Source of the DNA: an uncultured bacterium
GTDB taxonomy: Bacteria; Babelota; Babeliae; Babelales; Babelaceae
NCBI GenBank assembly: GCA_963713855.1
Contig: OY970209.1
Coordinates: forward strand, 1,408,001 to 1,472,000
Length of the DNA stretch: 64,000 bases
Direction: 5' to 3'
Each line of letters starts with the position of its first letter. Position 1 is the stretch's first letter. The position numbers were made by a program, and so were the translations under genes. The notes below the pieces were generated by a model. The model did no database searches. It was not told the DNA's origin and saw only the letters and a program-made list of their open reading frames with translations. Shown in pieces: positions 54,886 through 64,000 of the stretch.

Positions 54886-55500
54886 CTATGCCTGCTGATT
54901 ATTGCTTGTTCTGTATTGCTTTAGCATTTTTTTGACCTTATTTACATATGCCTCACGTGTATCTTGCCAAGCCTTAATAACTCGTTCTTTTGAAGCATCG
55001 GGATTTTGTAACAAAAACTGTTGAGTAAAATTAATATAAGCCCATTCTTTTTTAGGAGGCACTTTCTCATGTTGTCTACGGGTATATTGTTGCTGCCAGA
55101 ATGCGGCAAACTCTGCATATGTAGGAGGATCACCCAGCATCCAGCGGTTTTTAAGCCAGTCAATTCCGAACGCAGTAAAATGAAAATGATTGCCCACAAG
55201 TACTTTAAAAAATGCCCGAGTTTTGGCATCATTCTTGTACGCGCCATATAACATCAAGGCACTGGTTTCTAGACGATATCGCACACCTTTTTTTGCCTTC
55301 GATATGGTCGGAATTTGCTTTGGTGGTACTATTTTGCCAGTCTCTATATATGTCATAATACGATGGATCAGCTCAATTTTATTGCCGTTTGTTGGCAAAC
55401 TATACGATAAGCACACATCTTTAAGCTCATTCATTTTCATATAGTGCAAAGCTTCATTTAATGCAAGTAATTCGGCTGCTGACCATAGATGCGCCTTCAT
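54886..55500 (-). CDS. SAP-domain protein with DUF6434-like region
   Basis: MKMNELKDVC....LPTNGNKIELIHRI (SAP pattern); RAFFK..VG.HFHF and TYAE....W. Start placed at 55500. Confidence 0.72.
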   Translation of the reverse strand: MKAHLWSAAELLALNEALHYMKMNELKDVCLSYSLPTNGNKIELIHRIMTYIETGKIVPPKQIPTISKAKKGVRYRLETSALMLYGAYKNDAKTRAFFKVLVGNHFHFTAFGIDWLKNRWMLGDPPTYAEFAAFWQQQYTRRQHEKVPPKKEWAYINFTQQFLLQNPDASKERVIKAWQDTREAYVNKVKKMLKQYRTSNNQQA

Positions 55501-55937
55501 ATCTTCCCATTTCAGATTTTTTCGGCTTCGATTGCGAGCTATCAAATCTAGTTTTACGTCTTTAAGAATTGCTTGCAAGATATTTGCTATTTTATTCGGA
55601 GCCCTGTTCGATCAATAATTTCACGATTGTCGTGAGCACCGCAACTCTGATGAAAAAATAGCGCGAATCAAAGATGTTTGGGCGCTGGTGCAGAATAAAT
55701 AATTTCCACATCTCGAATCTTGAATTTCAGCTACCTCTATAGCCCAAATTCTAAGTCGCGAGGATTGTACTATCGCTGGCTGTCCACGCTTAATCCAACT
55801 ATCTGGAATCAGCCTAGAAAAAGAAAACTGATCTGCGCTTGATACAAAAGAAATCATTGACTAATATACTTATAAAATCTTATATTTAGATTATATATTT
55901 CATGAATTATATTTTCGGGCTTTCATGAGAGGCAATC

Positions 55938-58403
55938 ATGAGGATTTTATGTTCATACCTATTTTTAATGTGTTGTATAGGCTCAGCTTCATTGTACAGT
56001 AACGCTCCTCTAGAAATTGAAATTGCAAGTAAAGATCTCGCCTTAAAAAATCAACAAGAGTTCGAAGAAAAATTAAACTCTTTAATAAGCGTCGCTAAAT
56101 CCACCCTTGCAAAACCTCTGACCGAGAATAATAAAAGATACGCTTCTCAAATACACACCCAGCTATCAGTTTTGCTTGATATTTATGGGCATCGATATCC
56201 TATCGAGCCATCATTGCGTAAAGAAATCGTAAACCTACTCACTAAGCCTTCCGATACTGCGCCAACTAAAAAAGAAAGCCCTATAAAAGCAACAGAGGTA
56301 TCTATACCTGCACTCGGACTTACTTATCACCCAGGCTTTAAACTTCCTTTCATAAAGCAAAGCCCTGGTCAAATACTTACCCAAACACAAGTTTATTTAC
56401 AGGTTCCCGAATTGAGGAGCCGGGCATATAGTCTTATAAGATCATTAGAACAAGAACATGGCACTGAAGCTATTGCTCCTTATCTCTCATTAATACCTGA
56501 TATTATACGACAAGAAGTTGCGCTCAAGGATTATGATGTATTCTACCATGGACAACATGGTGATTTCGCATTTTTATACGATGTTATTAAGGAAATACAA
56601 CAGTGGCTAGCTGTTCGTCAAGAAACGAAGCACTTTGAGTATCTTCGAACTCCAGGTATGTTCCATCTCGATCAAAGCCTAAAAGAATTTCTTAAAGCAA
56701 CTTTTAGCGAAGATCAAAGTGCTTTCTCTCAGGGAAGTTTTGACAAAACACACCAAGATCTTCTCCTCTCTGTTAATTTATCACTTTTTGGTAGTTCTGA
56801 TGCATCTAATGAATCTTCATTTGCTTATTTCGTTGCAGGATATAATGCCTACACATCATCAACTCGTCCTCTGCTAGAGAAGCTTTTTGACCACTTTGAT
56901 TTCAAGAAATCGTACCTTGACGAGTTATTAGCTCTTTCAGAAAAATTTAGAAAAGGTGCTGAAAAAGGTAACCTTCTACAAATTTTTATGCCACGAGACA
57001 AAGTAAACGACTTGGTCTACTTAAGCGGTGGTTTTGGTGGGTTACCTGTAGGAGTAAAACCTTCATACTTCCATCCATTGGATTTTCCAAGATATGCACA
57101 AGCCCACCCAATCAAGGTAAAGGATGATGCAGGCAAAATACGAACGTATAACTTAAAGACAATGGATACCAGAACCTATCTGGATTTCTACCGCAGCAAT
57201 CCTCAAGCTATTAATCCTGATGATATGGATGTAATTCAAGGAAGGATTCTTCTTAATAATGATTTTCTAACGTACTCTCGCGAAGGAATAAAAATCTATT
57301 CTTACAATTTTATAACCATTAACCACGTCGAACAATACAAAAAAGAATTTAAGAGAATTATTAGCCGTATGATGCTCGACTGGCTTACCAGTCCAACTGA
57401 TACTTTTCTTAAAGAACGTTACCATATTGTTCAGAAAGCTTTTAAAAAATACACACCGGCTTCAAAAGTTGGAATAACTATAACACCTAAGCAAGAAAAC
57501 AAGCATCCATTGGTAAATGAGCAACAACAAGCACGGGATTTTTGGAAAAAATATTTTGCCCTTCAAAAAGCTCGCCGTAAAAAATTTCAGACACCTATAC
57601 CGTCCAGAAGACCCTATGCCAAAGGTGAAAAAGATGTAATGACGGTACGTTGGGCATTAGATCAATTTTTAACAGCAAGTGATAAAAGAGAGAGACTGGA
57701 TGCCTACAATGCTCTTAGAGAACTATTTAACCTTGAGCTTGCAGTTGCTCCCATTGAGATCGATACAGAATGGGTCTCAAATGAGAATCGCCAATCCCTT
57801 ATACAAATTATGAAAAATAACCTAGCATTAAATGAATCCTCAGTTGAAAAGAAGGTCTATCTGCTAAATTCCATATTTGAACCGGAATGTTTCGGCGAAG
57901 ATTATCTCCACTTATTTAAAAGTACTTCGGAACGCAGCACTATCTTAGATGAGATGCGGCTTATAGCTTATAATGAACTACGTAGCATGCTTCATCAATC
58001 AACCGCTCTATCAACAAACGATATAGATGAGGCATGGTTAGACCACCAAGATACTACTCTGTTTAAATACATCGTTAATACACATTTAGTACAGAGCTTA
58101 AATACATCTCCAAAACAGCAGTACTTTCTTACAGCCCTTGCTCTTGGTGACGTGTATCCATTAAGTCATCTTTTAGAGAACTCTACGTACGACTTATGTT
58201 TTTCCGAAGAACGTGAAGAGCGAATAAGATTTAACGCTTATAATCTCCTACGTCAGATGCTCAATCTTGCTGTAGCACCCTCGCCATTTCACATGGATAA
58301 AACCTGGCTTGAGAACATACACGGAAAATTAAACGATGTGTTTCATTCCACTAAAAAAGGACGGCAGTTTCTAGATTCTTTAACAGAGTCTTTTTTTGGA
58401 TAG
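55938..58403 (+). CDS. Large exported protein with a possible ADP-ribosyltransferase-like core and three C-terminal YNxLR repeats
   Basis: 821 aa, signal peptide; VFYHG, LLSVNLS, LLQIF, QGRILL; three YNxLR...[IM]DxxW units. Confidence 0.6.
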   Translation: MRILCSYLFLMCCIGSASLYSNAPLEIEIASKDLALKNQQEFEEKLNSLISVAKSTLAKPLTENNKRYASQIHTQLSVLLDIYGHRYPIEPSLRKEIVNLLTKPSDTAPTKKESPIKATEVSIPALGLTYHPGFKLPFIKQSPGQILTQTQVYLQVPELRSRAYSLIRSLEQEHGTEAIAPYLSLIPDIIRQEVALKDYDVFYHGQHGDFAFLYDVIKEIQQWLAVRQETKHFEYLRTPGMFHLDQSLKEFLKATFSEDQSAFSQGSFDKTHQDLLLSVNLSLFGSSDASNESSFAYFVAGYNAYTSSTRPLLEKLFDHFDFKKSYLDELLALSEKFRKGAEKGNLLQIFMPRDKVNDLVYLSGGFGGLPVGVKPSYFHPLDFPRYAQAHPIKVKDDAGKIRTYNLKTMDTRTYLDFYRSNPQAINPDDMDVIQGRILLNNDFLTYSREGIKIYSYNFITINHVEQYKKEFKRIISRMMLDWLTSPTDTFLKERYHIVQKAFKKYTPASKVGITITPKQENKHPLVNEQQQARDFWKKYFALQKARRKKFQTPIPSRRPYAKGEKDVMTVRWALDQFLTASDKRERLDAYNALRELFNLELAVAPIEIDTEWVSNENRQSLIQIMKNNLALNESSVEKKVYLLNSIFEPECFGEDYLHLFKSTSERSTILDEMRLIAYNELRSMLHQSTALSTNDIDEAWLDHQDTTLFKYIVNTHLVQSLNTSPKQQYFLTALALGDVYPLSHLLENSTYDLCFSEEREERIRFNAYNLLRQMLNLAVAPSPFHMDKTWLENIHGKLNDVFHSTKKGRQFLDSLTESFFG

Positions 58404-58471
58404 CAATTGAGCAAGAGCACTTTTAACGACTCATCTATACGTGATGTCTAAAAACGCACTTAACAGATTTA

Positions 58472-59233
58472 TTATTCTGAGCTATCTTTTAAGCAGCCTT
58501 TTAAAAGTTCTACTTCTTCAATTGGCGTAAGATTCGAGATACCCATAAGCAAGAGAATTGACTTTACCAGAAAATTAGGCATGCGTATAGCTTCAGAAGC
58601 CTCATAGTTTTTTATCATAGAAAGCACTACATCGGATCTACCATTTTTAACAAGTTTTTGGCATGCAAATAAATCTGCCTCACGTTCGTGGTCAATTTTA
58701 TGGGCAGCATGCATAGATGATTGCAAAGTGCTAAATAGCGGTATTCCTATCAAATATGAAAACCCCAATAACGATTTGCCTGCTTTAAAATGAGCAAAAG
58801 ACTTATACAAAAAATAGCACGCCAAAATGGCCGCTATTAAAGACTCCGCCCTCATGAGTATAGATTCTTGTATAGCTGTAGCGTGATCATAATGAAGGTG
58901 ACCCACTTCATGATAAATTGCAAAGAGTTTTTCAGCTTGAGAGTATGCTGATGTTGATTGAGATGGAAATACGATAAATCTTTGTCCCTCCTGCCTAAAC
59001 GTATGAGCCCATTCACCACCGCTTTCTAAAATAATAACGTTCTCGGTAATTCCGCACTCATCTAAAACTTTTCGCGCCTCAGTCTCAACCAAAACTGAAG
59101 CCGGCCTAAGATTTCTTTCGGACATAACGCGCGCCTTGATGCTCTCTGATTCTAATATATCATTACTACCGGTGGCATAAACGCAATTGATTAATAAGAT
59201 ACCCATACAAAAAATCTTTAAAGCACAACTCAT
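58472..59233 (-). CDS. M48-like zinc metallopeptidase with signal peptide and TM segments
   Basis: IYHEVGH (HEXXH) and EREAD; similar to the core of 5759..7243. Confidence 0.75.
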   Translation of the reverse strand: MSCALKIFCMGILLINCVYATGSNDILESESIKARVMSERNLRPASVLVETEARKVLDECGITENVIILESGGEWAHTFRQEGQRFIVFPSQSTSAYSQAEKLFAIYHEVGHLHYDHATAIQESILMRAESLIAAILACYFLYKSFAHFKAGKSLLGFSYLIGIPLFSTLQSSMHAAHKIDHEREADLFACQKLVKNGRSDVVLSMIKNYEASEAIRMPNFLVKSILLLMGISNLTPIEEVELLKGCLKDSSE

Positions 59234-59530
59234 GCGAAACCTCAAGCTTTAAAACGAATATCAATTTGTAATACAGCTCTCATATAATACGATCTGAAAA
59301 TAAAAAGTCAATATGAGTTAAATCCGAAATATCCTCAAATTACATTCAAACATGGCGGAGCATGAGTTATGCGCCCACTAAAACGGATAAAATATCTTTT
59401 AAATGCACAAAACACAAAGCCTATTTCATGAATTTGAATAAGTATATGCCATTCTCGCCCGGAGCTGTGAGAATACCGTTCTCTGTCTGGGCGTCTAAAG
59501 TTTCTTGAAAATCCAAAGAAGTCATTTTAA

Positions 59531-59959
59531 TTAAGAGGCCTTCTTTCTTAATTGGTTGAATTCATCGTGAGTCCACCATTCGATATTTAAAACACCTGAA
59601 TGGCTCTTGAGTGAATCGTCAATCGCGTTCTTAATAGTTTCTACAAATTTTGTAGTGTCTACCTTCTTAAAAAAGAAGCGCCTAACGAATGGAACATGTG
59701 GTTCGATAAAACACAAAAAACCATTTGGATATTCTTCGTAATTTGCACAACCTATCCACGTATTAAAATTTTCATTACGAATGGGTACAACCCAGCCCCA
59801 ATCTTCAACAAATGGCTCATCTACAGGTATTCCTCTTTTTTCAAGTTCAAGGTGTAGAAAGTCAGCAAGACGTTTGCCAAATATTCCAGGGTTAACCATT
59901 TCCGCTTCATCTTCGTAGGCAGGAAATTGATCGGAACAAAATTCTACATAAGTCTTCAT
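59531..59959 (-). CDS. Hypothetical protein, possibly an orphan immunity protein
   Basis: NPG.FGKRLA and EDWGW motifs; acidic and aromatic; no signal peptide. Confidence 0.6.
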   Translation of the reverse strand: MKTYVEFCSDQFPAYEDEAEMVNPGIFGKRLADFLHLELEKRGIPVDEPFVEDWGWVVPIRNENFNTWIGCANYEEYPNGFLCFIEPHVPFVRRFFFKKVDTTKFVETIKNAIDDSLKSHSGVLNIEWWTHDEFNQLRKKAS

Positions 59960-60123
59960 CTTAAAGCCCACTTAATATGTTAGGTCGATTTTTTGTTAAG
60001 GATAGACTAAATAACTGGCTTGCTCAATAATGGCATACCTAGATTATAGACGGCGCCATCTAGCAGTATCTCGGCCACTCATTAAGTAGCAAAAAAGCCA
60101 TTTTTAGAATAATCGGCCTACCC

Positions 60124-60696
60124 TCATTGAGCTTTTTGAAGGAGCTCTAATATCTGCACCGTTTTTTGAAGTTCGTTCATGGTTTCTTCTTTTGTTAATT
60201 TCAAACCTAAGAGGTTATCAGAGTTCGCTTTTATTAACTCTAATAAGCCAGTTGCTATTCCTACTATTAACGCTAAAGCTCCGATACCCGTCAGTGCGTA
60301 GGTATATCTCGAATCACATTGAACCGGACGCCCTGTCAAGCGCGGAATTTGCTTATATATCAAATAAATACTTAATGGAATGAGGGCTGCGCCTCCAAAT
60401 GCATTGTAGAGATTAACCTGCTCTTGCTCTTCATCTTCTAGCTCGATTTTCAAGCTTTCTATCTCTTCAAGAGCTAAAGCAGAAAGAATGCGCCGTTCCT
60501 TCTTAGCAAGTGATCCGTGCTGATACAGCAGATGACTAACAGACTCTGGGTCATGCTGCTCGACAGCTCTTTCAATGTCTTTAAGAGATATAGCAGGGCT
60601 AGAAGCCTTAAAGTGAAAACAGCCAAAGAACAGTGCCATGTATGCAAATAGCGCTATAACATTTTCATTTTTAATCATGAATGCTCCATCAAACAT
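60124..60696 (-). CDS. Hypothetical membrane protein (hydrophobic hairpin between helical regions)
   Basis: Signal-like N-terminus, two TM segments. Start may be 60678. Confidence 0.65.
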   Translation of the reverse strand: MFDGAFMIKNENVIALFAYMALFFGCFHFKASSPAISLKDIERAVEQHDPESVSHLLYQHGSLAKKERRILSALALEEIESLKIELEDEEQEQVNLYNAFGGAALIPLSIYLIYKQIPRLTGRPVQCDSRYTYALTGIGALALIVGIATGLLELIKANSDNLLGLKLTKEETMNELQKTVQILELLQKAQ

Positions 60697-61380
60697 GCTT
60701 TAGGCCTAAGATCATACTAAACGTATGTTAACATAAATTCTAATATTGAAAAAAAATAGCACTTTAGCAATAAAAAGGTCAAGCTTGAGCAGGCCGAAAA
60801 CAATTGAATGAGAAAAGACATAGAGAGCCTTGAACAAGTCATGCTTAAAGTAGCCTAATACTTTGAAATGAGGCGCCTAGAATATAAGCAATTATTCTAA
60901 AATATAGTTAAAAAATAGCTTATTTATCCATAGATAGTCAAAGAGTTTCGAACTCTGACTCGCAAGAGAAAGTTTCAAAGAGCATACTAGTGCTGTACTT
61001 GAAAACAAGCATAATCTTTACTCCAAAGAGCTCAAGGAACTGCCAGCAGCTGATCAGATTATTAAATTACCGCAGGAAATTGCGTAATGTATAGCAAAGA
61101 CTCTAATTCTGCCACCCTCGGCGGAAGTTTTTTTTCTAAAGCGATCTTGCATGATTGGGATGATAAGCGTGCTTTTTAATTCTGGGAATGTATCAGTGCG
61201 ATGCAACTTCAATCAATTTTGTATATCATCGAATCGATATTTGATCATTGTGAAGATGAAAGAAAAATGGGTGATGAAGAGCGCAATAAATTGGCTCGCT
61301 CCCGCAATATTGACATTATTTTGAGATTTTAGTTATTATTTTAATGTCGGTAGATAATTTAATAATAAAGGAGATAGAGC

Positions 61381-61752
61381 ATGAAGAAAACATTACTACT
61401 GATACTTTTAGTGTCATATACCCATATAAGTAACACCAGCACGACTAAGCAAGAGTGCTCACAAGGTCAGTCCTATGATGCAGTAGCCAATGTATGCTGC
61501 GATAATAATCTTTTTAGCGCAGCAAGCAAGCGTTGTTGCCCAAGTGGATATGCTCCGACATCGAATAAAGGTGGTGGTCTTATGCTATCGCCTTGGAGTC
61601 CGAAATTTCTTCCTGATTCAGATAAGATTTGTTGTCCTTTAGGCAGCCAAGCCGTTCCTGTTGGGGGAGGGAAATATTACAAATTCGTTTGTTGTGCTAA
61701 GCGAACCGAGGATTTTCCTTGTCAAGTAAAAAAAACAAATCCTCCGGTATAA
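61381..61752 (+). CDS. Short exported CC-repeat protein related to 26810..27859
   Basis: Signal peptide, AAGGAG RBS, four CC pairs, shared CCPLGS. Confidence 0.8.
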   Translation: MKKTLLLILLVSYTHISNTSTTKQECSQGQSYDAVANVCCDNNLFSAASKRCCPSGYAPTSNKGGGLMLSPWSPKFLPDSDKICCPLGSQAVPVGGGKYYKFVCCAKRTEDFPCQVKKTNPPV

Positions 61753-61887
61753 ACCTGCCTATTTAAGCAAGCTTTTTCTAATAGAGGCATCCTGACAACG
61801 CTAATACAAGATTGATAGGAATAAGTGGATTGCTGTTTTCATGCATTGCAAAAAGCTTGTATAAGCTACAACTCGTTGGCGCATTAA

Positions 61888-62192
61888 GATAGGTTTTACC
61901 AGACTATTCGAGATCAGACCATTGGCGTTAATATCCAGCTCGAGCAACTCCAAGAGGACCAAGATAATTATTACGTTACAGCAAAATGCCTTCTGGGTTT
62001 AGCTAATCGAGCATTTGAACTTTTTACAAGTTCTGAAATTGAAGAAAAGCGACAGGTTATGAAACTTGTACTATCGAACGTCGAGATGGCCGGAAAAGCG
62101 CTCTACGACGTTCAACCGCCATTTGATATGATCCTAAAATGTTCGGATCGTCAACTATGGCGTACCTAAGAGACTTATTCAGGAACAGAGAA
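61888..62192 (+). pseudogene. 3-prime remnant of a large serine recombinase
   Basis: Start-less open frame DRFYQTIRDQ...LQEDQDNYYVTAK.LL.LANRAFELF.SSEIEEKRQVMKLVLSN...PFDMILKCSDRQLWR, recognised from memory as a recombinase C-terminus. Confidence 0.7.
62158..62192 (+). repeat. Imperfect direct repeat copy 1 (att-like)
   Basis: TGGCG-TACCTAAGAGACTTATTCAGGAACAGAGAA; 27 of 36 columns match copy 2, with one gap. Confidence 0.6.
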
Positions 62193-62277
62193 ACAAACTA
62201 GACACATTTTCACGTGCTTTAAGAATAGCTACGTGAAACACTAACCAAAAATACCTGCTCTTTCAAAGCTTATGCTG

Positions 62278-62559
62278 CTACTTCATTTCTCTGAACATTT
62301 TTAAATGCTTATTTTCGTCATTCATAAACACTTTCAGTTGACTCATATTGTAGCCATATCGCTCAAAAAGACCTCGAAGCTCAAGCAAGTCTAGCTTGGG
62401 TATATTTTTTGATACGACATACACGTATACCTCTTTCCCAATTCCCTTACATCCTATTACAGATTTAATCTTTTTAAGCCACTCAAACATTGCATCTTCA
62501 TCATATTGAGGAGAATAAAAGGTGAGCGGAGTTAATATAAGAGTAACTTGATCATTCAT
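62278..62559 (-). CDS. Putative immunity protein of the upstream Hint toxin
   Basis: Intact 93 aa ORF starting 7 bp after the reconstructed toxin stop; no signal peptide. Confidence 0.7.
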   Translation of the reverse strand: MNDQVTLILTPLTFYSPQYDEDAMFEWLKKIKSVIGCKGIGKEVYVYVVSKNIPKLDLLELRGLFERYGYNMSQLKVFMNDENKHLKMFREMK

Positions 62560-62566
62560 AATTTTT

Positions 62567-63450
62567 CTATTTAGTAGGAGGTCTAGTTTTTCCGCCGGGA
62601 TAGATATTATTTACACGATCTCCATCGGGATTTACAATATCCAATGTGGACCGGCATGACCATAAGGACCGCTTGGTACCCAATAGTTGCCATCTTTATC
62701 TGGCCAACCATGCTGATCAGTTTCGGGATGAGGCTGCTTTTTCCCATCAGAATTTTTGGGAGGAATATATCCATCTTTTTCACCAGGCTTATCAGGAATG
62801 GAAAGGTCATAAAGACGGTTGAACTCTTCCTAATTTGCAGTTCTTCCTGATGCACCAAACAACTTTTTAAAAGCTCCATTTACAAAGAATTTTGAAGCTA
62901 TTCCACCTAAAGTAGCGAGAACTCCCATTCCTACGGCATTCCAGCCAACAAAAGCTAAACCTTGGCCTGCTCCCCATGCAAAAAGCGGTATTATATTATG
63001 CACTAATATATCTTCTCTTGATACACAGAAATTATGATACTCCTCTACGGTAAGATCATAAGCAATATCATGAGTAACTATTTCTAAGATATGACCAACT
63101 TTAACGAACTCTAAGCAATTTTTTAAAAGTGAATGGCCTACTTTGAGCTCTTCTGCTTTTACCCACTTTCCTTCTAAAGGGAGATAAAATATGTGATCAT
63201 CTGCTACAACTATTTCCTCGCCATTAACAACAACGCGAAAAAAACGTGAAGCTCCTTTATGTTCTATATGCGTAACACTTCTCTCAATACAAGAGCCCTT
63301 AAAATCAAAACAAATGACTTTATCACCTTCTTTAAGCTCTTCTATTGGTATGTAGCCATTTGAGACTTTAACTAAAGTTCCACTTAAAAACCCTTCTCCT
63401 CGAGCAACGTTTATCGCCAAGAAACATATAAGTATTAAGATTCTTTTCAT
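62567..63450 (-). pseudogene. Polymorphic toxin: signal peptide, Hint domain, hydrophobic segment and Ntox37-like tip, inactivated
   Basis: GF.SGTLV, IEELK.GD.V, DH.FY, YDLTVEEYHNF.V...ILVHN. Reading through TAG (62830-62832) gives GWPDKDGNYWVP...GHAGPHW; a frameshift near 62640 gives (D)IVNPDG...NIYPGGKTR. Confidence 0.85.
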
Positions 63451-63613
63451 GCTTTTTCTCTTTAGATATTTCTAACGTACAATCAAATCTGCTTCAGTGT
63501 AGAATGAACTTTAATAAAGTCAACGGTGTGTTTGCTTGCAAGACAGTTGCTGTTAACAAGAAAGAAAACATAAATCAGGGCTGCGGTTAGAAAATGATGA
63601 GCTTAAAATTATT

Positions 63614-63641
63614 GAGGTTTTTAAAGCGGCTTAAAAACCTC
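63614..63641. terminator. AT-rich hairpin, possible terminator
   Basis: GAGGTTTTTAA-AGCGGC-TTAAAAACCTC. Confidence 0.45.
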
Positions 63642-63678
63642 TACCAAGACAGTATAGATAATACCAGCCTTTAAGTGC

Positions 63679-63714
63679 TGGCGGCACCTAAGCGACGCAT
63701 TCGGAAATAGAGAG
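63679..63714 (+). repeat. Imperfect direct repeat copy 2 (att-like)
   Basis: TGGCGGCACCTAAGCGACGCATTCGGAAATAGAGAG; translates WRHLSDAFGNRE. Confidence 0.6.
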
Positions 63715-63763
63715 ATTAAACCAAACTTACTTTTTAAAATAGGAGATCTCTTTAATTTCTTAC

Positions 63764-64000
63764 TCAATAAGTAATGGCAATAGTTTTGTCTTTACAATTT
63801 ATATGCACCAGCCCACCATTAGGAACAACTATTTGCGGGTCTGTATGACCAAAATTCAGATTAAAAACAACAGGAAGATTAGCGTTGTAATCCTGCAAAG
63901 CTTGCTGAATTGCTTCTCTCTGATTTGTTACATAGTGCCCTCTACCTTCAGGCGGCAACATATGCATAAACTGCGTCTTTGGTAACCCAACTAAGATAGC
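63764..64000 (-). CDS. S66 family LD-carboxypeptidase/MccF-like peptidase, C-terminal part (runs off the window)
   Basis: PVVFNLNFGHTDPQ.V.P.G catalytic His motif. Confidence 0.85.
   Translation of the reverse strand, partial: AILVGLPKTQFMHMLPPEGRGHYVTNQREAIQQALQDYNANLPVVFNLNFGHTDPQIVVPNGGLVHINCKDKTIAITY

Follow-up and report, generated by a model that had tools for sequence, protein, structure and literature searches.

Repeats bracketing a toxin-immunity cassette are probably junctions in a fossil array of site-specific insertions at a tRNA-Asp gene

A decayed toxin-immunity cassette lies between two similar repeats, R1 and R2, near the right end of the window, by which we mean the whole 64,000-nucleotide stretch of DNA analysed. 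Our findings support the view that both repeats are real att-type junctions, the scars of a serine-recombinase mobile element. We consider them likely to be part of a fossil array that arose by site-specific insertion at the 3' end of tRNA-Asp and that includes cassettes without a recombinase. The evidence consists of the repeat pair itself, a family of such sites next to tRNA-Asp, the large serine recombinase (LSR) whose tail contributes to some of these sites, and comparable units in related genomes.

The repeat pair and the cassette between the repeats

The features in and around the cassette are listed in Table 1. R1 starts at window position 62158 and R2 at 63679, both on the + strand. 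A global alignment gave 27 identical columns out of 36 with one gap, which reflects a base missing from the R1 core (TGGCG, from 62158). Aligned locally to region 62201-64000, R1 scored at best 18, a value reached by none of 1000 shuffles of that region (mean 9.8, maximum 17), and elsewhere in the window the best score was 13 on the + strand and 11 on the - strand. The similarity claimed in an earlier note on this DNA therefore held in the shuffle test that had been named beforehand. In R1, an imperfect hairpin arm (62116-62157) sits within the coding tail of the recombinase remnant and folds with -10.9 kcal/mol, which was equalled by 0 of 200 shuffles, and its right (P') arm ends at approximately 62192. 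R2 is composed of a hairpin (CCAGC..GCTGG, 63661-63683), the core TGGCGG (63679-63684) and a P' arm that extends to approximately 63714; here, 12 of 200 shuffles folded equally well. On the minus strand, there is a terminator-like pattern that overlaps the hairpin of R2, and in the promoter and terminator scans the counts were not above those of shuffles (14 terminator-like patterns versus 8.3, sd 3.1). ARAGORN detected no tRNA in 55000-64000 and a search of 58000-64000 against Rfam was negative at E<=1, which ruled out a tRNA or known RNA in these regions as the source of the repeat.

Table 1. Features of the window discussed in the text
Feature	Position	Strand	Basis
M48-like HExxH protein gene	58472..59245	-	68% DNA identity to gene in tRNA-Asp-proximal unit of G001
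LSR C-terminal remnant, ~95 codons	61879..62169	+	profile positions 389-484 of 485, E 5e-36
Site R1, recombinase-tail arm / core / P' arm	62116..62198	+	alignment, fold
Candidate immunity gene, 93 aa	62278..62559	-	8 bp downstream of toxin gene
Polymorphic-toxin pseudogene: signal peptide, PT-HINT, Gly-rich linker, Ntox37	62567..63450	-	domain matches
Site R2, hairpin arm / core / P' arm	63661..63720	+	covariance model 74.4 bits, E 3e-20
LD-carboxypeptidase gene, 3' part, first gene of unit after R2	63764..64000	-	Peptidase_S66C

The recombinase remnant was recognised with an LSR profile built from 6 intact relatives (485 positions), and Pfam alone gave no match in it. Everything upstream of profile position 389 is gone, and what is left is 78% identical to the tail of a tRNA-adjacent pseudogene. 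As the earlier note had stated, the remnant ORF stops inside R1, and the proposed reading of R1 after a one-base repair agrees with a second remnant 3.8 kb downstream (locus L005, 5846-6031), an ORF with the unbroken form of the tail, ...CSDRQLWRYLSNAFRNRE... Within the window by itself, this is a fossil feature.

The toxin gene is broken as well. Pfam matched PT-HINT on 62830-63450 (E 2e-13) and Ntox37 on a separate piece, 62635-62826 (E 1.6e-7). Read through from the start codon, the toxin frame contains three stops, which we interpret as one premature in-frame stop, after codon 206 (~62829), and a frameshift near 62640, because the last piece continues in another frame. The candidate immunity protein belongs to no family in Pfam or PHROGs. 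A paralogue of its gene, 40% identical, is found at L172 (2223-2633), fused behind an orphan Ntox37 C-terminal fragment and positioned downstream of an intact PT-HINT toxin; of the genome's five PT-HINT toxin genes, three are situated outside the array described below. Between R1 and R2, the toxin gene and the candidate immunity gene are indeed the only genes, since the further ORFs there are short and overlap both. On the best reading, the toxin cassette is one small unit, bordered at R1 by what is left of an older full element and at R2 by the unit's own hairpin arm. The unit that follows R2 begins with an LD-carboxypeptidase gene, the full length of which (L005, 3764-4828) encodes the S66 N- and C-terminal domains, and ends beyond the window in the second recombinase-tail remnant.

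A family of sites adjoining tRNA-Asp

R1 and R2 are members of a ten-copy family that lies entirely on the + strand, at genome positions 1470158-1490721. An nhmmer profile made from 8 copies rescored those 8 at E 1e-14 to 1e-18 and added two further copies (E 4e-7 and 4e-6), and it found no other site at E<0.01 in the 1.52-Mb genome. The 10 same-strand sites span 26.7 kb of an island adjoining the tRNA gene. Each site consists of a left arm, which is either an LSR tail or a short hairpin, the core TGGCGG, and a conserved P' arm of ~30 nt. The core corresponds to the final six bases of tRNA-Asp in reverse complement, and the array ends with the tail of an LSR pseudogene, TGGCGG, and then the reverse complement of tRNA-Asp(GTC). 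The array is anchored at tRNA-Asp, 25 kb beyond the remnant next to the toxin, and not at that remnant. Counted over the whole array, there is one tail/core/tRNA junction, two are tail/core/P' and eight hairpin/core/P'. These hybrid junctions (tail/TGGCGG/tRNA-Asp, tail/TGGCGG/P' and hairpin/TGGCGG/P') have only the short core in common with the target, and at tRNA, tail and hairpin junctions alike, shared sequence gives way to unshared sequence at the same six bases. In both tail/core/P' copies, the conserved arm of ~30 nt extends the reading frame of the LSR tail.

With ten sites and the tRNA junction as borders, 7 of 10 units are without any recombinase sequence. Cargo genes occur on both strands and comprise toxin-antitoxin pairs, two toxin-immunity pairs, peptidases and decayed LSR elements, and units down to 0.84 kb contain complete toxin-antitoxin operons. 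For a conserved 279-aa protein and other cargo, neither Pfam nor PHROGs gave a match that would indicate a function. On the far side of the cassette, judging from its similarity to a gene of the same-genus genome G001, the M48-like gene may belong to an earlier, decayed portion of the island. At 59353 there is a TGGCGGAG motif that matches the G001 flank, and with the covariance model no scoring site flanks the gene in this genome.

According to the alignment, the sites have a hairpin followed by a conserved, non-palindromic arm of 30 nt. For four of the eight hairpin arms, at most 5 of 200 shuffles folded as well as the arm, and for a fifth the number was 12. For two of the three tail arms, all but 0 or 1 of 200 shuffles folded less well, and the other three hairpin arms and the tRNA-adjacent tail arm folded no better than shuffles. 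Hairpin potential is thus not universal among the arms. When tRNA-Asp trailers without an LSR nearby were inspected, 7 of 17 showed a perfect stem of at least 6 bp anchored on the terminal GCCA, with stem sequences that differed among the seven. In this classification, two trailers are the tails of a more divergent LSR, and the L054 trailer has no LSR within 1.8 kb. The hairpin arms resemble the natural tRNA-Asp trailer of the family, and they probably replace this trailer, with a presumed trailer function, as long as the unit is tRNA-proximal.

The recombinase and its target

The tRNA-adjacent LSR pseudogene (L006, 9436-10887) contains Resolvase (E 2e-18), Recombinase (E 3e-8) and Zn_ribbon_recom (E 4e-8) domains. 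The LSR profile had five matches in the genome, which come down to a single pseudogene, divided among three frames, and two remnants of the tail, so that all three recombinase copies are broken. The profile search revealed no intact LSR of this family in the genome, and therefore nothing can be on the move at present. A second recombinase, of the kind found in small/large pairs, was not detected either, as the Resolvase-domain ORFs in the 6.2-kb full element are all pieces of one pseudogene.

Of 8 LSR reading frames examined in sister genomes, 7 terminate at the 3' end of an antisense tRNA (Asp, Glu, Arg or Gln) or continue through it, the exception being a remnant in G001. From 80 further loci, 45 of 77 LSR ORFs ended inside an antisense tRNA, the targets being Glu (16), Asp (12), Arg (11), Asn (5) and Gln (1), and the cores for Glu and Gln targets vary in step with the tRNA end. 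Since LSR frames stop inside tRNA genes, the att site must lie in the 3' end of the recombinase gene itself, as the earlier note had supposed. The family is apparently large and undescribed: one scan yielded 262 confirmed stretches, and among the papers searched none pairs Dependentiae with a serine recombinase. A family that targets conserved tRNA 3' ends, with an att site overlapping its own stop codon, is of interest for site-specific integrase tools.

Sites in related genomes

Related sites were found at E<=0.01 in 9 of 40 other genomes of the family. G001 carries a different set of units at the same tRNA-Asp compared to the present genome (G000), among them an M48-like gene between a hairpin/core/P' and a hairpin/core/tRNA-Asp junction. 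Its arms have different stems within one genome (GCCATAC/GTATGGC and GCCAG/CTGGC). In G004, a 2.9-kb unit (DUF1016, CPBP protease, methyltransferase-like) is located between two near-identical hairpin+core copies, the right one of which abuts tRNA-Asp. No LSR was present within 1.8 kb of this tRNA, and there was no LSR-like ORF among the listed ORFs of at least 60 aa in the unit, as judged without a Pfam scan. The near-identical flanking arms of this unit also fit homologous recombination or arm duplication. Recombinase-less units thus occupy the tRNA-proximal position in two other genomes. A single full element is seen in G020, with hairpin/core/P' 6.3 kb upstream of the LSR and tRNA-Glu.

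The earlier note predicted array units with different cargo, and had set beforehand that relatives without variable cargo between such repeats would speak against it. The same-strand array and the other units at the same tRNA-Asp in G001 agree with the prediction, and the cargo of G000 and G001 differs. The 12.4-kb stretch left of the island gave only 4 scattered short matches in G001, and synteny between the two genomes outside the island is too scrambled for the insertions to be dated. The 4-kb flanks of the 80 related LSR loci contained no site at E<=0.01 with the covariance model; as the model is specific to the genus-level P' arm, this negative result carries little weight. Homologues of the VapC cargo elsewhere (41-49% identical) had a site nearby in 0 of 11 loci. 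Two metagenome scans gave 0 matches to the genus-level site pattern and 4 uninformative ones to the family-level P' pattern, all single sites on short contigs without a tRNA or second site. For a 10-kb stretch of the array no sequencing run was listed, and neither circular junctions nor empty sites nor strain polymorphism came to light, so that there is no sign of current activity.

How the array may have formed

The att site of the LSR overlaps the end of its own gene, and the crossover probably lies within TGGCGG. After integration, the LSR gene stops inside the tRNA (...QLWRG*), and when unintegrated or in tandem it reads into the P' arm (...QLWRYLSNAFRNRE...). We infer that each new unit entered beside the tRNA and displaced older units outward, so that every event would leave one junction made of the right arm of the previous unit, the core and the P' arm of the newcomer. 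Full elements are ~6 kb in size with the LSR tail as right arm, and the array contains three of these, all decayed. The small units of 0.8-3 kb, without a recombinase, have as right arm a short hairpin ending in TGGC, and their cargo is a toxin-antitoxin pair, a toxin-immunity pair or a single gene. Their movement would presumably have depended on an LSR that acted in trans from another locus.

Classical LSRs recombine attP with attB only, and insertion into a hybrid site is not textbook behaviour. The model needs LSR insertion into such a site (previous arm/core/tRNA), which counts against it.

A different course of events would be that only full LSR elements integrated in tandem and then decayed, the small units being deletion remnants that were never independently mobile and the arms being copies of the tRNA trailer that gene conversion or unequal crossing-over had multiplied. 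In favour of this, an LSR remnant closes three of the units, every recombinase copy in the genome is defunct, the G000 hairpin arms look like diverged copies of one sequence (ATGCCAGC..AAG.GCTGGCGG), and two G004 arms are near-identical. However, random deletion would need to have stopped precisely at the core 8 times among 10 junctions, on every occasion sparing a hairpin arm without similarity to the LSR tail, the G001 arms differ in stem within one genome, and 0.84-kb units still hold complete toxin-antitoxin operons, and we regard this scenario as unlikely. It is less probable still that the repeat is a structural or regulatory element, for example a tRNA-trailer or terminator-like hairpin with a conserved tail, scattered in a variable island that was shuffled by homologous recombination and not by an LSR. 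Similar hairpins after tRNA-Asp in 7 of 17 relatives without an LSR nearby, and the terminator-like pattern over the R2 hairpin on the minus strand, fit this idea, but terminator-like counts did not exceed those of shuffles, Rfam gave no family match, the 30-nt arm continues the LSR-tail frame in two tail/core/P' copies, all 10 copies have one orientation relative to the tRNA, and the same six-base boundary recurs in tRNA, tail and hairpin junctions. Chance similarity of two short AT-rich stretches might be suspected from a match of only 27 of 36 columns and a best shuffle score of 17 versus the observed 18, but it is refuted by the ten one-strand copies within 27 kb found genome-wide with nhmmer (E down to 1e-18) and by the related sites in 9 of 40 other family genomes (E<=0.01).

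Site-specific insertion at tRNA-Asp thus being the preferred reading, a more far-reaching version of it can be put forward tentatively, although we would not quite give it an even chance. A tRNA-targeting LSR may serially insert tiny recombinase-less cassettes in trans at the tRNA 3' end, as a Dependentiae-type form of cassette capture. Each cassette of 0.8-3 kb would own an att site composed of a tRNA-trailer-like hairpin, a 6-base core and the conserved arm, with toxin-antitoxin, toxin-immunity and effector-like genes as cargo. If true, this would be a functional analogue of the integron with a different enzyme, using double-stranded hybrid sites that are unexpected for classical LSRs. Mobility of recombinase-less cassettes would mean that LSRs repeatedly accept hybrid sites, which bears on the rules of LSR site choice. 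It would also show how protist-associated, obligate intracellular Dependentiae, with their small genomes, maintain a changeable set of toxin, antitoxin and effector-like genes beside a tRNA.

Comparison with known systems

Tandem accretion by serine recombinases has already been described, in SCC elements and in the ssrA islands of Dehalococcoides, and on the best reading our array would be closer to SCC composite islands or to these ssrA islands than to an integron. SCC/SCCmec elements of staphylococci (CcrAB) are serine-recombinase elements that enter the 3' end of one conserved gene, and their composite islands contain internal att repeats and pseudo-elements without recombinase genes. The SCC system differs in that it targets a protein gene (rlmH/orfX), uses paired CcrA/CcrB, involves much larger elements, and has neither a hairpin arm nor an att overlap with the recombinase gene. 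In the accretion of streptococcal ICEs and CIMEs, att-flanked units without recombination genes stand in tandem with a recombinase-bearing element, as they do here, but these elements use tyrosine integrases, long identical cores and conjugative partners.

Chromosomal integrons rely on the tyrosine integrase IntI, which recombines attI with attC as folded single strands, and hold co-oriented cassettes expressed from Pc; attC sites have paired R/L boxes. The likeness lies in arrays whose small cassettes are promoter-poor to single-operon and abound in toxin-antitoxin pairs, with a structured site after each cassette, one orientation and an adjoining recombinase gene. In contrast, the present array has a serine recombinase, genes in both directions and a tRNA anchor. 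No tyrosine-recombinase family, of IntI type or other, appeared among the 9 + 29 ORFs of at least 50 aa scanned in array and flanks, and with cargo on both strands the cassettes are not co-oriented behind a common promoter. The integron-like behaviour suggested in the earlier note applies to the outcome only, and of its overall interpretation the att junctions, the site in the recombinase's own 3' end and the variable-cargo array are supported.

In the Dehalococcoides islands, the LSR DsiB integrates at the 3' end of the tmRNA gene, and several islands follow in tandem downstream, bounded by direct repeats of the gene's 3' end (PMC3146451). These islands have a 20-bp gene-end repeat, measure several kb, carry dehalogenase genes and encode two serine recombinases, DsiA and DsiB; in some of them the integration module is missing, and the authors consider such islands as cis-mobilisable elements acquired through accretion (PMC3146451). 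What they and SCC share with our array is the presence of tandem units at the 3' end of one conserved gene, att repeats, and units without a recombinase. The array described here differs in having tRNA targets, only ~6 bases in common with the gene, a repeat whose conserved part (the P' arm) comes from the element, an att site overlapping the recombinase stop codon, and units down to 0.84 kb. Unlike both the ssrA islands (DsiA/B) and SCC (CcrA/B), only one recombinase gene is seen per element. The tycheposons of Prochlorococcus are likewise tRNA-anchored variable islands with repeated integration at one site, in which newcomers push older elements inward and which are strewn with degenerate integrases and partial att sites (bioRxiv 10.1101/2020.12.28.424599). 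They differ by tyrosine recombinases in 910 of 937 elements, by repeats of partial tRNAs, and by the replication genes that the elements carry (bioRxiv 10.1101/2020.12.28.424599).

Repeats R1 and R2 bracket a broken toxin gene

The att-like repeats R1 and R2, which begin at window positions 62158 and 63679, align with 27 of 36 columns identical and one gap. The best local score of R1 in the downstream 1.8 kb was 18, a value that none of 1000 shuffled sequences reached (maximum 17), and elsewhere in the window R1 scored at most 13. Only two genes, both on the minus strand, lie between them, so the proposal of the earlier note that similar repeats bracket a toxin-immunity pair stands. The stretch before R1 matched positions 389-484 of a large serine recombinase (LSR) profile (485 positions, built from six intact recombinases) with E 5e-36, which confirms the recombinase remnant that had been noticed there and that Pfam alone does not recognise. 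Immediately left of this remnant is a gene for a cysteine-rich secreted protein of 123 aa, the sole match of which was a weak, sub-threshold Galaxin repeat (E 4e-4).

The first 206 codons of the toxin gene encode a signal peptide and the PT-HINT domain, and the next piece carries the Ntox37 match. Two lesions, an in-frame stop following codon 206 and a frameshift near 62640, break the frame, and this copy is dead; the cassette is an ordinary kind of polymorphic-toxin pair. Elsewhere in the source genome (G000), an intact paralogue with a different C-terminal domain precedes several small genes, among them an orphan Ntox37 end fused to a 93-aa-protein homologue. This fusion supports the assignment of the 93-aa ORF as candidate immunity gene. 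Within the orphan module, the last ~20 Ntox37 residues are joined in frame to the immunity-like protein, and the gene for the intact PT-HINT toxin and three small ones lie upstream of the module, the usual arrangement of spare toxin tips.

The repeats belong to a family of ten sites next to tRNA-Asp

Sites were located by BLAST and then with a profile of the copies in G000, a single 1.52-Mb contig of 41% G+C. Ten sites were found, all in the same orientation. In nhmmer, the eight copies used to build the profile rescored at E 1e-14 to 1e-18 and two additional ones at 4e-7 and 4e-6, with no further match at E<0.01 in the 1.52-Mb genome. A third recombinase tail, ending in TGGCGG, lies approximately 6 kb past the last site and directly abuts the reverse complement of tRNA-Asp(GTC), beyond which lie tRNA-Asn and tRNA-Val.

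The core TGGCGG is common to all ten sites and precedes a conserved right arm of ~30 nt (P'), with consensus TACCTAAGCGACGCATTCAGGAATAGAGAA. In two of them, R1 and the site at 1473927, the left arm is the 3' coding end (tail) of an LSR, whose reading frame continues across the core into P'; the unbroken copy (1473927) reads ...CSDRQLWRYLSNAFRNRE.... The remaining eight have a short hairpin as left arm (GCCAGC-loop-GCTGGC), the 3' side of which shares TGGC with the core. An imperfect hairpin with its end at the same bases is also present in the LSR tail. When the arms were folded as single-stranded DNA, each against 200 shuffles, at most 5 shuffles folded equally well for four of the eight hairpin arms and 12 for another, while three folded no better than shuffles. 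For the tail arms, these numbers were 0 (R1), 1 (the second remnant), and 55 (the tRNA-adjacent pseudogene).

The units between successive sites carry genes in both directions. Paralogous secreted HExxH (M48-like) and long repeat proteins are encoded within the island and next to it, with a single member in each unit, and look like a diversifying effector family. The full element, a unit ending in an LSR, also encodes a 279-aa protein without a Pfam or PHROGs family. Its DNA is ~69% identical in five other genomes, always at most a few kb from an LSR gene, and it could act in directionality or replication.

Coordinates of sites, units, and other features (G000 unless stated; each site is listed with the unit that follows it)
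Feature	Position	Strand	Description
M48-like/repeat-protein set	window 55938-58403, 58472-59245; L005 7159-8400; L006 2009-4285		
TGGCGGAGTC motif	window 59353		retained in G000
Secreted protein	window 61381-61752		123 aa
Recombinase remnant	window 61879-62169		before R1
Candidate immunity ORF	window 62278-62559	-	93 aa
Toxin gene	window 62567-63450	-	PT-HINT E 2e-13, Ntox37 E 1.6e-7
Site R1	genome 1470158	+	tail arm, core, P'; unit A: broken toxin, immunity candidate
Site R2	genome 1471679	+	hairpin arm, core, P'; unit B: LD-carboxypeptidase, DUF1016 fragment, LSR tail remnant
Site	genome 1473927	+	tail arm, core, P'; unit C: Gp49-like toxin, HI1420-type antidote
Site	genome 1475041	+	hairpin arm, core, P'; unit D: M48-like protein, 413 aa
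Site	genome 1476997	+	hairpin arm, core, P'; unit E: broken toxin, HTH antitoxin
Site	genome 1477926	+	hairpin arm, core, P'; unit F: intact PT-HINT/Ntox33 toxin, DUF4279 protein, antidote fragment
Site	genome 1479976	+	hairpin arm, core, P'; unit G, 842 bp in all: PIN toxin, small upstream ORF
Site	genome 1480818	+	hairpin arm, core, P'; unit H, 7 kb: TetR and ABC-transporter genes
Site	genome 1487899	+	hairpin arm, core, P'; unit I: 758-aa protein
Site	genome 1490721	+	hairpin arm, core, P'; unit J, full element, 6.2 kb: ends in LSR pseudogene at tRNA
279-aa protein	genome 1492921-1493760 (L006 6921-7760)		in full LSR element
Orphan Ntox37 module	genome 1265223-1265633 (L172 2223-2633)		
Intact toxin paralogue	genome 1266780-1267640 (L172 3780-4640)		
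Doubled cores, G001	L040 2527-2570, 3690-3750		

The recombinase carries its attachment site in its own 3' end

The tRNA-adjacent recombinase is a pseudogene, its sequence split among three frames, and its Resolvase, Recombinase, and Zn_ribbon_recom domains identify it as an LSR. It is nearly full length and the outer two copies are stumps of 95 and 34 codons; a search with the LSR profile found no intact LSR in the G000 genome, and the locus is a fossil there. In sister genomes, intact LSRs of 485-535 aa end in ...CSDRQxWRG*, ...WRP* or ...WRAR*, and they stop within, or read through, the antisense 3' end of tRNA-Asp, -Glu, -Arg or -Gln. A wider survey of 80 further loci gave a callable LSR ORF in 77. 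The stop codon falls within an antisense tRNA in 45 of them (Glu 16, Asp 12, Arg 11, Asn 5, Gln 1), and cases of run-through of the antisense tRNA gene and of contig ends are among the remaining 32. Since the bases shared at the junction change with the tRNA (Asp TGGCGG, Glu TGGCGT, Gln TGGCTG), the crossover maps to the six 3'-terminal bases of the tRNA gene. These tRNA-matched cores and the LSR frames ending at antisense tRNA 3' ends bear out the suggestion that the attachment site and the 3' end of the recombinase gene overlap, and integration swaps the last ~36 LSR codons for two or three codons plus a stop from the tRNA gene. At several loci (L026, L098, L107, L114, and others) the frame passes through the tRNA without stopping, and such tails, e.g. 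...GRKDSNLR... or ...GDSNPCFRRERAMS, are translated antisense tRNA. Close relatives of this LSR (52-65% identical) were found on contigs labelled as Patescibacteria groups or Gammaproteobacteria (L155, L162, L163, L167, L169-L171, and others), ending in tRNA-Asn in the labelled cases, which could reflect either genuine cross-phylum spread or binning error.

Among tRNA-Asp genes at 22 loci of the family (L050-L079), an LSR tail adjoins the tRNA in 5, and no LSR is present within 1.8 kb in 17. In 7 of these 17, a perfect stem of at least 6 bp starts on the terminal GCCA of the tRNA, with differing stem sequences; in G000, only one of 38 tRNAs, the neighbouring tRNA-Asn, has such a trailer stem. 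In the tRNA-Asp trailer hairpin, the terminal GCCA together with 2-6 more bases forms the 5' arm, and the stems covary; the hairpin may signal processing or termination specifically in the Dependentiae-type family.

Sites and recombinase-less units in related genomes

A covariance model of the site matched 10 of 41 family genomes, G000 included, at E<=0.01. A genome of the same genus (G001) has ten sites, five of them downstream of tRNA-Asp and one beside an intact LSR at tRNA-Gln. The cargo of its tRNA-Asp island (M48-like gene, LSR pseudogene element, ParD/YafQ, ankyrin, WD40, IS110, MsrAB) differs from that in G000, thus cargo between the repeats does vary among relatives. In another genome of the family (G020), a hairpin-core-P' site lies 6.3 kb upstream of an LSR at tRNA-Glu, as a single full element, so that in an ordinary integration the far side is formed by the hairpin arm.

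Units without a recombinase occupy the tRNA-proximal slot in two cases. In G001, an M48-like gene is flanked by hairpin-core-P' and hairpin-core-tRNA-Asp. In G004, from another genus, near-identical copies of a 45-nt hairpin plus core flank a 2.9-kb unit, with P' after the left copy and tRNA-Asp after the right. By sequence appearance, its three large ORFs would encode a DUF1016-type nuclease, a CPBP-type protease, and a methyltransferase-like protein; none of the ORFs listed for the unit looked LSR-like, and no LSR was present within 1.8 kb of tRNA-Asp. In the G001 tRNA-proximal unit, a second core, TGGCGGAGTC, precedes both hairpin arms, the doubled cores being ~25-30 nt apart, and may have been left behind by an emptied unit.

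Probable accretion at the tRNA-proximal site

The junction types follow attP x attB recombination logic: tail-core-tRNA is an attR and hairpin-core-P' an attL, and tail-core-P' would form when a newcomer inserts beside a resident full element. Full elements leave only tail-type arms, so they cannot alone account for an array of many different left arms, and the arms therefore arrive with their units. The most economical explanation would be that full elements, and small units with a hairpin as their own right arm, repeatedly entered at the tRNA-proximal site; the state of LSR decay, from near full length beside the tRNA to stumps outside, agrees with this. The small units would have been mobilised in trans, the hairpin presumably substituting for the tRNA trailer while a unit adjoins the tRNA.

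Several observations count against this account. Classical LSRs are not known to use hybrid sites, three of the five PT-HINT toxin genes in G000 lie outside the array, and none of 11 homologues of one cargo gene elsewhere was accompanied by sites. Homologous exchange would also fit the flanking arms in G004, which are near-identical around the unit. Considering the sites, the LSR, and the junction types together, we regard accretion by a serine recombinase as likely, and of the earlier interpretation this part holds up; the integron-like capture of single cassettes, its other part, is only plausible.

Tandem accretion by an LSR at an RNA gene is already known. In Dehalococcoides, the 3' end of the conserved RNA gene ssrA hosts tandem islands made by a large serine recombinase, some islands described there have no integration module, and the authors liken them to SCC (PMC3146451). 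The tycheposons described in Prochlorococcus are tRNA-anchored islands from repeated integration, mostly by tyrosine enzymes (bioRxiv 10.1101/2020.12.28.424599). A literature search found no paper pairing Dependentiae with a serine recombinase, and broader ones, judged by their result listings, no description of this LSR family. In contrast to these described islands, the G000 array has tRNA targets that share just six bases, an att site overlapping the recombinase stop codon, hairpin arms, and units of integron-cassette size that are rich in toxin-antitoxin and toxin-immunity pairs.
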